DNA of 64,000 nt from Trypanosoma brucei (lineage: Eukaryota). The position numbers and the translations under genes are program-made. Every line of letters starts with the position of its first letter. Position 1 is the stretch's first letter. Below the pieces are notes generated by a model that had not been told where the DNA came from, ran no database searches, and saw only the letters and a list, made by a program, of their open reading frames with translations. Below are positions 1-2,159 of this stretch, one piece after another. Location of the stretch: NCBI GenBank assembly GCA_000002445.1, contig CP000071.1, positions 1,760,001 through 1,824,000 on the forward strand. The letters are read 5' to 3'.

Positions 1-256
1 TTGGTATTTTATTGTCTCCTCTTCTGTTTCACCTGTAACCAACTCCGGCACTGTCGTCGTTTTTTTTCTCCATCTCTGTATATGTGAGAGTGCCCACTGC
101 ATTTCACTCCTCGATTTTTTCTTTTTTGTTTTATTTCCCTCCATTTGCATTTTCCTCGTTCCGGACTGTTGTTGTTCACTCTCCGACAATTTGTTGAAAT
201 ACAACGTGAGGGGGTTCTCATTGCCGTCACCCCTATTGTATGCTACTACGAGCTTC

Positions 257-1366
257 ATGGGTATGGGTCTCACCGGGATATGCCTCGCACTATTGGTTGC
301 AGTTTTCTCCTACACGGTGAACTGGGCACACTTCGACTTTAGTCTCGAGAGTAAGAGCCCGCATAACAGCGGCTGTTTGGAAAAGCCGCTTTGTGATGGC
401 CAGGTTAGTTTTATGGGGAGAGTTAAATGCCAGCTCTTCACCTACCCCGTCGATGTGGATAGACACGACTACAAGCGTGACGTGATGGGGAGGTTGGCAA
501 GGCTCTTGCAAAAGGGTCTTAAAGGACAACCGCATGTGGTTGAGGGTGTAAAGGGAGATATCGCGGTCAAACTAGCAAATCCGGGGAGGCCTTTAGTGTT
601 ACACTTCGCGGGTGACAATGGGGTGGGGAAAACGACGCTTGCGCAACTCATATCCCTTGCTCTCGCCTTTCGCTGCCGTGACATGTCGTGCCTGGTGGGT
701 GATACCTCCCTTGTGCTTTCCGGAGTAAGCTACGACGGTTACTCAGTGACAGACTTCCGCAGCGATGTGGTGCAGAAAATTGTGGAACACGCCAAGCGGT
801 ATCCACGAAACGGTGTTGTTATAGTCAACGACTTGAATGGCTTGCATCCGGATCTGGTGCGCGTTCTCCTTCCGCTATTCGGTAGGGCAACGACATTCCC
901 CGAGGCCTCTGACGCGCCACTCAACTACTTGACGGTGATAATAACAACAGACTTTGGTCGCCAAGGGCGAACACGGGGGAAGAGCTTATCAGATATGCGA
1001 CGTATCGTAGAAAGTGATTTTAAGAGTCTCTACTCGCAACTTTCTTCGTCTATGATACAAACCTATCCTTTCCTACCAGCGTCGTTGTCGACTGCGAGGG
1101 AAATAGTCCGAGCAACCGTCGATGGGTACCGCTGTGATAGTCGGCACGGGATTGGCAAACTGGATGTTGATGATGAGGTAGTTGAGTGGTTTATTGATTT
1201 GGTGAAGGACGATTTACCAGCGGAAAATGGACGTTGTGTTTCCAAAGCCGTGGTTGGAGTCGTTGGGCCCGCCGTGTTGCAACATCTCTCCAGCAGGTTA
1301 CCGAGTCTTGCCTCGCTGCGTGTGGTGCTTGATAGCGACGGCTCAGTTGCCGTGCGCGAGAACTAA
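257..1366 (+). CDS. Torsin-like AAA+ family protein. It has an N-terminal signal peptide or anchor, an intact Walker A (GDNGVGKTT) and a degenerate Walker B.
   Basis: The ORF track starts this ORF at a TTG (191); the first ATG is at 257. The N-terminus MGMGLTGICLALLVAVFSYTV is hydrophobic. The block NPGRPLVLHFAGDNGVGKTTLAQLI matches torsin NPKKPLTLSLHGWAGTGKN. VVIVNDLNGLHPDLVRVLLPLF aligns to torsin [22 protein letters not shown]. Length is 369 aa, torsin-like. Confidence 0.5.
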   Translation: MGMGLTGICLALLVAVFSYTVNWAHFDFSLESKSPHNSGCLEKPLCDGQVSFMGRVKCQLFTYPVDVDRHDYKRDVMGRLARLLQKGLKGQPHVVEGVKGDIAVKLANPGRPLVLHFAGDNGVGKTTLAQLISLALAFRCRDMSCLVGDTSLVLSGVSYDGYSVTDFRSDVVQKIVEHAKRYPRNGVVIVNDLNGLHPDLVRVLLPLFGRATTFPEASDAPLNYLTVIITTDFGRQGRTRGKSLSDMRRIVESDFKSLYSQLSSSMIQTYPFLPASLSTAREIVRATVDGYRCDSRHGIGKLDVDDEVVEWFIDLVKDDLPAENGRCVSKAVVGVVGPAVLQHLSSRLPSLASLRVVLDSDGSVAVREN

Positions 1367-1664: not shown

Positions 1665-2159
1665 ATGCCTCCAAAGTTTGACCCCAATCAGGAGATCACA
1701 GTCGTCGTCCGTGCTGTGGGTGGTGAGGTGCCTGCAACGGCGTCACTCGCCCCCAAGGTTGGTCCACTCGGTTTGAATGCGAAAAAGATCGGTGAGGACA
1801 TCGCCAAATCCACGAAGGACTGGAAGGGTCTCAAGGTTACGTGTCAGCTGCGCGTAAAGAACCGTGTGGCTACCGTCGTCGTCACGCCATCTGTCGCCTC
1901 AAGGCTGATCCGTGCGCTGAAGGAGCCACCGCGCGATCGCAAGAAGGTGAAGAACATTAAGCATGACGGTAACATCGCCTTCTCTGAGATTCTGAAGATT
2001 GCGAAGGAGTCCGCGCCGAACTCTATGGGCGCCAGCATGAAATCTGTGGTGATGGAGGTACTTGGCACTGCCGTTTCCATCGGATGTACCATCGACGGTG
2101 AGCACCCGCGCGCGATTCAGGAGAAGGTTCAGGAAGGTAAGCTGAAGGTCCCCAACTAA
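1665..2159 (+). CDS. RPL12: 60S ribosomal protein L12 (uL11)
   Basis: MPPKFDPNQEITVVVRAVGGEVPATASLAPKVGPLGLNAKKIGEDIAK...; canonical L12/L11 sequence, 164 aa. The internal ATG lies inside a longer ORF-track ORF. Confidence 0.95.
   Translation: MPPKFDPNQEITVVVRAVGGEVPATASLAPKVGPLGLNAKKIGEDIAKSTKDWKGLKVTCQLRVKNRVATVVVTPSVASRLIRALKEPPRDRKKVKNIKHDGNIAFSEILKIAKESAPNSMGASMKSVVMEVLGTAVSIGCTIDGEHPRAIQEKVQEGKLKVPN

Follow-up and report, generated by a model that had tools for sequence, protein, structure and literature searches.

Sequence analysis of a 64,000-nucleotide stretch of Trypanosoma brucei DNA (GenBank assembly GCA_000002445.1, contig CP000071.1, positions 1,760,001 to 1,824,000 of the forward strand; the whole stretch is called the window below) indicates that the gene at 257..1366 on the plus strand encodes a torsin-like AAA+ protein with an intact nucleotide-binding loop and an asparagine in place of the Walker B aspartate, a replacement that appears as a fixed trait of the kinetoplastid subfamily to which the protein belongs. 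The open reading frame (ORF) is real. The ORF listing and translation gave a complete coding sequence of 369 codons plus stop, and the product is identical, by exact-sequence match, to T. brucei Q57YK3 / AAZ13366.1 (Q57YK3_TRYB2), a protein present without differences in T. b. gambiense and T. equiperdum and labelled in databases as "hypothetical protein, conserved" or "AAA+ ATPase domain-containing protein". Taken as a whole, the best explanation of the data is that this subfamily represents a torsin-like, ATP-binding but hydrolysis-impaired switch or assembly subunit of the endoplasmic reticulum (ER) or nuclear envelope, a reading that we regard as probable, although not strongly so.

Torsin-like AAA+ proteins of the ER are already known in kinetoplastids. 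The parasitic species were reported to have "multiple torsin paralogues" of a family placed in the ER (PMC10903960, PLoS Comput Biol 2024): one, ERIKA (ER-implicated kinetoplastid ATPase; Q382P2_TRYB2, A4HU03_LEIIN), has a signal peptide and a KDEL-equivalent -DL tail, and a second, "more conventional" form has no KDEL-like tail. Q57YK3 is the T. brucei member of this second, non-KDEL form (here K1), with which it shares the hydrophobic segment at the N-terminus, the CxxxPxC motif and the GDNGVGKT P-loop. The supplementary alignment of that work includes the Q57YK3 orthologues A0A422N6P1_TRYRA, A0A3R7NQX6, A4I131_LEIIN and Q4QAA8_LEIMA, together with homologues from Dictyostelium, Acanthamoeba, Ectocarpus and Perkinsela, so that the view of torsins as a metazoan peculiarity, taken up in a preliminary description of this DNA, is outdated. 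The Asn at Walker B is not mentioned there. In our survey, orthologues were found across Kinetoplastida: every Trypanosoma sampled has one (57-69% identity), and others come from Leishmaniinae, Leptomonas, Novymonas and Porcisia (about 45-49%) and, at about 40%, from Bodo saltans and related sequences. Since the match to Q57YK3 is exact and orthologues are retained at these identities, the torsin resemblance seen in the preliminary description is not a product of chance; its observation is confirmed, and its interpretation, a torsin of the ER apparently able to bind but not hydrolyse ATP, is supported in part.

The nucleotide-binding side of the active site is strictly preserved. In an alignment of 23 orthologues (A1), the whole P-loop (H116-FAGDNGVGKT-126) is invariant, as are N191, T230-T231-D232, G234, G237-R238-T239, G241 and E323-N-G-R326, and the active-site columns were further tabulated in a MAFFT alignment of 165 sequences, 36 of them from the K1 subfamily. 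The strings on which the preliminary description was based all lie where it had placed them, among them NPGRPLVLHFAGDNGVGKT (residues 108-126) and GDNGVGKTT (residues 119-127, nt 611-637). Walker A itself (GDNGVGKT, 611..634, plus strand, with K125 and T126) is present in 36/36 members, D120, N121 and K125 each being found in all of them, and in an AlphaFold2 model built on A1 (mean predicted local distance difference test, pLDDT, 85.5; predicted template modelling score 0.81) it follows strand beta1 (113-119), which runs into it, and opens the helix 125-136. The sensor-2 motif E323-N-G-R326 (1223..1234, plus strand), at the N-terminus of helix 320-345, carries a Clp-like Arg, found in all 36 K1 sequences, and not the redox GCK of torsins; the region reads ENGR(C/A/S/T)V, with Cys327 in some Trypanosoma species only. 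Because the P-loop, the sensor-2 Arg and the sensor-1 Asp are all invariant, nucleotide binding is apparently under selection.

The catalytic side is different. In the Walker B strand VVIVN191-D192 (815..832, plus strand; predicted strand beta3, 187-191, ending at N191), which lies within VVIVNDLNGLHPDLVRVLLPLF (residues 187-208, nt 815-880) and aligns with 'VILFDE' of ClpB and 'IFIFDE' of torsin, the Mg-site Asp is replaced by Asn (codon AAC) and the catalytic Glu by Asp (codon GAC), so that the change from D-E to N-D noted previously is upheld. In K1 this position is Asn in 35 sequences and Asp in one, and the next residue is always acidic (19 Asp, 17 Glu). For comparison, it is Asp in all seven Clp D2 sequences and in human torsinA, where Glu follows, sensor 1 is Asn and sensor 2 is Arg (Clp D2) or the Lys of GCK (torsinA). 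Among 99 other single-module relatives, Walker B has Asp in 82 and Asn in 14, followed by Glu (54) or Asp (43), with Asp at sensor 1 and Arg at sensor 2 in 90 each. The Asn-for-Asp change thus recurs outside Kinetoplastida, for instance in P0127 and P0140 (Nonionella stella), and seems either to have several origins or to be old within the family. The only K1-clade member with a canonical D-E (GVIIIDEF) is P0059, a 371-aa Logan sequence with an ENAR sensor 2 and no KDEL-like tail, which could reflect either the original Asp, prior to the change to Asn, or a return to it.

On one residue the preliminary description has to be corrected. It had taken the sensor-1 residue in LTVIITTDFG (residues 225-234) for Thr, and the residue is Asp232, the D of TTD, because HMMER aligns TSN of ClpB NBD2 with TTD, the MAFFT columns agree and the predicted strand beta4 (226-232; 932..952, plus strand) ends there. 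Clp D2 and torsinA have Asn at this place. Asp is found in all 36 K1 sequences and in 148/157 of the non-Clp, non-metazoan sequences, which points to a hallmark of the whole protist family and not to a private degeneration. Past sensor 1 follows a basic glycine-rich loop, FGRQGRTRGKS (953..985, plus strand), which is conserved (R238 in 35/36) and has no regular secondary structure in the model (pLDDT about 73); it might form an interface or act in trans as an arginine loop. The Clp arginine-finger position, located by alignment alone five residues ahead of YPFLP, is Ser265 in Q57YK3 and Ser in 33 of the 36 K1 sequences, with R238 and R240 as possible trans-acting residues; it is Arg in Clp D2, Leu in torsinA, and among the 99 relatives most commonly Leu (29), with Arg in only 7. 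The beta2-alpha2 (pore-loop) segment lacks GYVG and falls about 8 residues short of its Clp D2 counterpart.

That Q57YK3 would bind ATP without hydrolysing it, as first proposed, can reasonably be deduced from published Walker B mutants. Asp-to-Asn exchange at Walker B in diverse NTPases was reported to retard activated hydrolysis while nucleotide binding is unaffected, and the engineered mutants were described as showing "universal catalytic incompetence" (bioRxiv 10.1101/2022.06.23.497301). We hypothesize that ATP would be bound through the invariant P-loop, the sensor-2 Arg326 and the sensor-1 Asp232, and that intrinsic hydrolysis would be very slow or absent because Walker B has Asn, the next residue is Asp and not Glu, and the Clp finger position has no Arg. 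The protein would then act as a nucleotide-dependent switch or assembly subunit and, because it has no GYVG pore loop, not as a threading motor. A useful precedent is the D2 ring of NSF, a cytosolic protein of a different AAA+ clade, which binds ATP and is essentially non-hydrolysing, with Asp in place of the catalytic Glu. There, a degenerate Walker B serves stable ATP binding and oligomerisation rather than turnover, and the D-D of ERIKA and the N-D of Q57YK3 may follow a similar logic; NSF D2, however, keeps the Walker B Asp that Q57YK3 has lost.

The same residues can also be read as a rewired but active ATPase, in which Asp232 together with Asp/Glu192 replaces the lost Walker B acid, perhaps with stimulation by a partner. 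The sensor-1 Asp in 36/36 sequences and the invariably acidic neighbour of Asn191 are what this would predict, and a natural polynucleotide kinase with Asn at Walker B, in which a Glu on the adjacent strand takes over proton trapping, offers a parallel, Asp232 being placed likewise (bioRxiv 10.1101/2022.06.23.497301). Furthermore, the catalytic site of both kinetoplastid subfamilies was judged intact by superposition of AlphaFold models on 5J1S (PMC10903960). Nevertheless, Asp232 is also found in 90/99 other relatives and in all 22 ERIKA sequences, where the Walker B Asp is retained; since it occurs in relatives that keep that Asp, it would predate the Asn change and not compensate for it. The catalytic incompetence of the engineered Asp-to-Asn mutants and the lack of an arginine at the Clp finger position likewise speak against turnover, and we consider a rewired active enzyme possible but rather unlikely.

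Placing the protein in a family required profiles at the family level, because single-sequence searches were weak: those against Pfam and PDB returned sub-threshold, mixed P-loop matches only. Q57YK3 alone misses every Pfam threshold, with Torsin (PF06309) at 18.1 bits (E = 0.003) against a gathering threshold of 27 and AAA_2 at 17.7, and does not match TOR1A_C (PF21376). Among its orthologues, 11 of the 23 in A1 match Pfam Torsin at E <= 0.01 (best 3.5e-6), and precomputed PF06309 matches are on record for P0006, P0008 and P0010. The torsin strings cited in the preliminary description occur verbatim in vertebrate torsin-1B, and the collinear match claimed there is real: BLASTP against rat torsin-1B runs from Walker A to PFLP with 24% identity over 200 residues (pairwise E = 1e-8), including the YPFLP motif (1064..1078, plus strand), common with torsins (VPFLPL) and also recovered by hhalign. 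The A1 profile finds ClpA/ClpB D2 in the PDB at 9e-10, with torsinA not among the best 60 matches, and reaches an hhalign probability of only 23.7% against the single sequence of human torsinA (checked against 6OIF).

The connection to torsins runs through other protists. A HMMER scan with the A1 profile over 1.84 billion representatives gave 726 proteins at E <= 1e-3, which beyond kinetoplastids form a continuum of proteins of about 350-420 residues with a single AAA+ module, a GDNGVGKT P-loop and a hydrophobic N-terminus, very often ending in an xDEL, xSEL or xDL tail. Among the organisms identified are the euglenid Ploeotia, the amoebozoans Pellita and Amoeba proteus and the foraminifer Nonionella, and many further members are metagenomic; homologues from Dictyostelium, Acanthamoeba and Ectocarpus listed in PMC10903960 may belong here too. 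All 10 sampled intermediates are above the Pfam Torsin threshold (27.3-42.3 bits). Q57YK3 resembles this family in its P-loop, in [ST][ST]DFG with the sensor-1 Asp, in the N-G/Y-R sensor 2, in PFLP, in the N-terminal Cys motif and in length, and it carries all the features that are invariant or nearly so in K1 (GDNGVGKT, TTDFG, ENGR, PFLP and the N-terminal CxxxPxC...C); it differs in that the protist proteins mostly have a canonical D-E or D-D Walker B (Asp 82, Asn 14 of 99) and a KDEL-like tail, whereas Q57YK3 has N-D and is tail-less.

Profile-profile comparison by hhalign of five groups built in this analysis gave, for K1, E = 3.2e-78 with ERIKA, 4.8e-43 with the protist group, 1.4e-24 with Clp D2 and 3.7e-6 with vertebrate torsin-1A/B; the protist group matched Clp D2 at 1.6e-32 and torsin at 2e-26, and torsin matched Clp D2 at 1.9e-18. 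Because of these comparisons we place Q57YK3 in a family of ER-type proteins found widely among protists. Of the groups compared, this family comes nearest to metazoan torsins; it appears more Clp-like than torsins, and in profile space it links Clp D2 to them. A neighbour-joining tree supports the K1 clade (Trypanosoma 100% bootstrap; with Leishmaniinae 87%; with the Bodo group 91%), a core ERIKA clade (78%) outside which Q57YK3 falls, and a Clp D2 clade (98%); its deep nodes are below 25%, so that the tree does not decide whether metazoan torsins have the protist family as their specific sister group. As to the torsin identity originally proposed, the profiles thus uphold one AAA+ module of the Clp/Hsp100-D2/torsin lineage, while torsin membership appears to come only via the intermediate protist family that passes the Pfam threshold. 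'Torsin' is used here as a lineage label and not as strict membership, because the Pfam score is sub-threshold and the Clp D2 profile is closer. As a separate observation, two multi-module proteins from the scan of representatives, P0154 (979 aa) and P0167 (1525 aa), which carry two or three GTSG[TV]GKT[YF] P-loops and lack a hydrophobic N-terminus, gave the strongest phmmer scores to human torsinA of the whole set (4e-20 and 4e-22, in a small database), and may be tandem torsin/Clp-like modules.

The predicted structure leads to the same lineage. In the AlphaFold2 model an N-terminal helix (5-31) and a poorly ordered linker precede the AAA+ alpha/beta domain, which is followed by a small alpha/beta domain of Clp-D2 type at the C-terminus (residues 277-369; 1085..1363, plus strand) which contains the invariant C293 and ends in ...AVREN, and the top 50 Foldseek matches in the PDB are NBD2 of ClpB, ClpC, ClpA or Skd3 throughout (E ~1e-13). 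The modelled fold places Q57YK3 in the Clp-D2/torsin group and leaves the choice between Clp D2 and torsin undecided. Together with the profile and hhalign results, it led us to reject an unrelated generic P-loop NTPase (kinase-like, ABC-like or STAND) that resembles torsins in the P-loop only; the weak, mixed and uniformly sub-threshold top single-sequence Pfam matches (AAA_21, APS_kinase, Torsin, AAA_2) were what such an origin had in its favour, and it is effectively refuted.

A true unfoldase or disaggregase of Hsp100/Clp type, working in the ER lumen and threading its substrates through a hexameric pore, would agree with the Clp/Hsp100 D2 modules (ClpB NBD2, ClpA D2, ClpC D2, human CLPB/Skd3) being the best profile and fold matches of Q57YK3, and with the sensor-2 Arg, the D2-type small domain and the 'HPD' segment past Walker B that both have in common. 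The machinery of threading, on the other hand, is missing: Q57YK3 lacks GYVG in its shortened pore-loop segment, has Ser265 at the Arg finger and Asn-Asp at Walker B, and has one module only, N-domain, D1 and M-domain all being absent. We therefore hold a threading unfoldase to be very improbable. Unlike Clp/Hsp100 proteins, Q57YK3 also has a sensor-1 Asp, a putative secretory N-terminus and conserved cysteines.

Compared with metazoan torsins (TorsinA/B; PDB 5J1S, 6OIF; PF06309, PF21376), which have GKN in Walker A, D-E in Walker B, Asn at sensor 1 and the redox GCK at sensor 2, Q57YK3 has GKT, N-D, Asp and NGR, and its small domain is larger, of Clp type and with beta-strands. No LAP1/LULL1-type activator has been described for the kinetoplastid lineage. 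Torsins have been described as lacking an arginine finger and aromatic pore loops, and as having a redox-sensing sensor II made of GCK and a partner cysteine (PMC7175109, the latter citing Zhu et al.). Q57YK3 is torsin-like in the absence of an own Arg finger and of an aromatic-hydrophobic pore loop and in its single Clp/Hsp100-D2-related module, and it is Clp D2-like in the GKT Walker A, the NGR sensor 2 and the D2-type small domain.

The hydrophobic N-terminus noted previously (residues 1-21; 257..319, plus strand), a putative signal peptide or signal anchor, is the only strongly hydrophobic segment of the protein, with a maximal 19-residue Kyte-Doolittle mean of 2.04 at residues 3-21. An uncharged hydrophobic run of 17-26 residues occurs in every Trypanosoma orthologue and its position is kept in all orthologues; the L. 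infantum orthologue A4I131 is positive for a signal peptide in S12 Table of PMC10903960 (0.9936) and absent from its SignalP6 list S5. Behind it lies the N-terminal cysteine motif C40-x3-P-x-C46 ... C58 (374..430, plus strand), ahead of the AAA+ core; the first part of the motif lies in SGCLEKPLCDGQ (residues 38-49, nt 368-403), the CxxxxC pair of the preliminary description. Both kinetoplastid paralogues have this motif, as do many relatives from other protists. A second pair, C140 and C145 (RCxDxxC; 674..691, plus strand), sits in the loop past the P-loop helix and is common to K1 and ERIKA. All six cysteines invariant in A1 (C40, C46, C58, C140, C145, C293) argue for an oxidising compartment. 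The Leishmaniinae K1 proteins (P0011-P0026) have in their last 30 residues extra conserved cysteines, CPxxxC plus a Cys at or near the C-terminus (e.g. ...ALEMTC), a set absent in Trypanosoma K1 that suggests an additional disulfide in that lineage.

Seven tail-bearing members of the K1 clade, including that of Bodo saltans, end in SDL, DEL, SEL, TSL or GDL, whereas Trypanosoma K1 C-termini vary (VREN, REEG, FRVQ and others) and Leishmaniinae K1 end in a conserved cysteine; a KDEL-like tail was probably ancestral to K1 and lost in trypanosomatids. A mitochondrial Skd3-like protein was also contemplated and rejected, the N-terminus being hydrophobic and not amphipathic, the cysteines conserved and KDEL-like tails present in relatives. 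We strongly infer that Q57YK3 enters the secretory pathway and has its AAA+ domain in the lumen: the protein would face the lumen of the ER or nuclear envelope, either soluble or held by an uncleaved signal anchor, and would form disulfides there.

Several points weigh against a luminal, hydrolysis-impaired, torsin-like protein. Q57YK3 itself ends in ...SVAVREN with no KDEL-like tail, and its sequence has no N-glycosylation sequon, so that ER residence in T. brucei is deduced from relatives. A coarse measure of h-region length (medians 19-23) does not separate K1, tail-bearing K1 and ERIKA; by this measure nothing indicates that a signal peptide has become a signal anchor, and the two are indistinguishable for Q57YK3. 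The family label suffers from the sub-threshold Pfam Torsin score and from the subfamily being closer to Clp D2 than to vertebrate torsin. Concerning catalysis, the strict conservation of Asn191, Asp/Glu192 and Asp232 fits a rewired active site as well, Asp232 as a compensating acid may leave room for residual ATPase activity, and the published assessment is that of an intact site in both subfamilies (PMC10903960). The searchable literature on Q57YK3 yielded nothing on localisation, binding or ATPase activity, and a cooperation of K1 with ERIKA, which would supply the partner, is speculation.

With regard to that assessment, the alignments suggest two corrections. The "intact catalytic site" (PMC10903960) is contradicted by the Walker B Asn of the non-KDEL subfamily, and is not strictly true of ERIKA either, in which (n = 22) Walker B has Asp in 22 and Asp again at the next position in 22, sensor 1 is Asp in 22, sensor 2 is His in 21 and the Arg-finger position is Ala in 20. 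Q57YK3 thus differs from ERIKA in its N-D Walker B and ENGR sensor 2, against D-D and ENGH, and in having no -DL signal, the T. brucei ERIKA being a separate protein (P0339/Q382P2) that ends in ...SMNDL. In addition, Bodo saltans A0A0S4KNW8 was listed under ERIKA because of its -SDL tail (PMC10903960). This protein (P0028, ending in ...DDAMSDL) has an N-D Walker B and ENGR and joins the K1 clade with 91% bootstrap, by which it is assigned to K1 and not to ERIKA.

The two paralogues might work together. Q57YK3 could form complexes with ERIKA (Q382P2), which retains the Walker B Asp and the ER-retrieval tail. Because their signatures are complementary, because named ERIKA matches are trypanosomatid-only and because named trypanosomatid K1 proteins lost the tail that members of the bodonid branch keep, ERIKA may be both the working partner of K1 and the means of its retention. 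Carried further, K1 would be a non-catalytic regulatory subunit of ERIKA in mixed rings or dimers, analogous to LAP1/LULL1, held in the ER by the -DL tail of ERIKA and perhaps donating a basic residue from its GRxGRTRGK loop. LAP1 and LULL1 are not known to bind nucleotide, unlike what the perfect P-loop of K1 implies. The timing argument is also weak: ERIKA-like sequences with an NGH sensor 2 and xEL tails occur in non-trypanosomatid samples as well, and while all named ERIKA matches are trypanosomatid, they come from a word-filtered search that missed known members in its first run, so that the apparent absence of ERIKA in Bodo is not established. We regard such a regulatory subunit as unlikely. 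As a broader, tentative proposal that we hold with low confidence, K1 would be a naturally Walker-B-defective torsin-like subunit, fixed throughout the history of Kinetoplastida and working with ERIKA, either as an ATP-bound, non-hydrolysing partner or as an enzyme whose acid has moved to sensor 1.

Torsins are mechanistically puzzling, with weak hydrolysis, partner-dependent activation and no established substrates, and are usually discussed as metazoan proteins. In the trypanosome protein the GKT P-loop, the sensor-2 Arg and the D2 small domain are kept, and the Arg finger and pore loop are already missing. If the ERIKA-partner form were true, it would be a protist counterpart of torsin-LAP1/LULL1 made of two nucleotide-binding AAA+ paralogues, and in either form K1 would offer a genetically tractable, pre-metazoan model for the torsin system and for partner dependence evolving from Clp/Hsp100 D2. 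With the pair Q57YK3/Q382P2 in a tractable organism, ATP-binding-only and hydrolysing torsin-like roles could be separated. Beyond the known family, the value of this work lies in the corrected "intact catalytic site" claim and the reassignment of A0A0S4KNW8; the remaining interest is in the conserved Asn-Walker-B variant and in the use of the K1/ERIKA pair as a tractable system for studying how torsin-like mechanisms evolved.

Concerning the locus, direct reading of the sequence 5' of the start codon (1..210, plus strand) showed pyrimidine-rich tracts followed by AG dinucleotides, which from this pattern alone is likely a trans-splicing acceptor region. ORFs of at least 300 aa in the window are on the plus strand only, and this one-strand arrangement, together with the pyrimidine-rich tracts before the start, fits a trypanosomatid polycistron. 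A tRNA scan of the window found no tRNA genes, and a tandem-repeat scan found none scoring at least 100. Directly downstream, at 1665..2159 on the plus strand, lies the gene for 60S ribosomal protein L12 (164 aa; exact match to Q57YK4_TRYB2/AAZ13367.1), of which T. b. gambiense has a second identical copy (CBH14798.1) and the literature gives a chromosome 9 copy, Tb927.9.14000. The segment 16001..20000 is clearly AT-rich (GC 0.335-0.387, against ~0.45-0.53 elsewhere) and has few long ORFs. Finally, a 1412-aa ORF at 8762..13000 (plus strand) coincides with a strong purine skew at 10-12 kb (AT skew 0.29, GC skew 0.19), and its product may be a low-complexity or repetitive protein.

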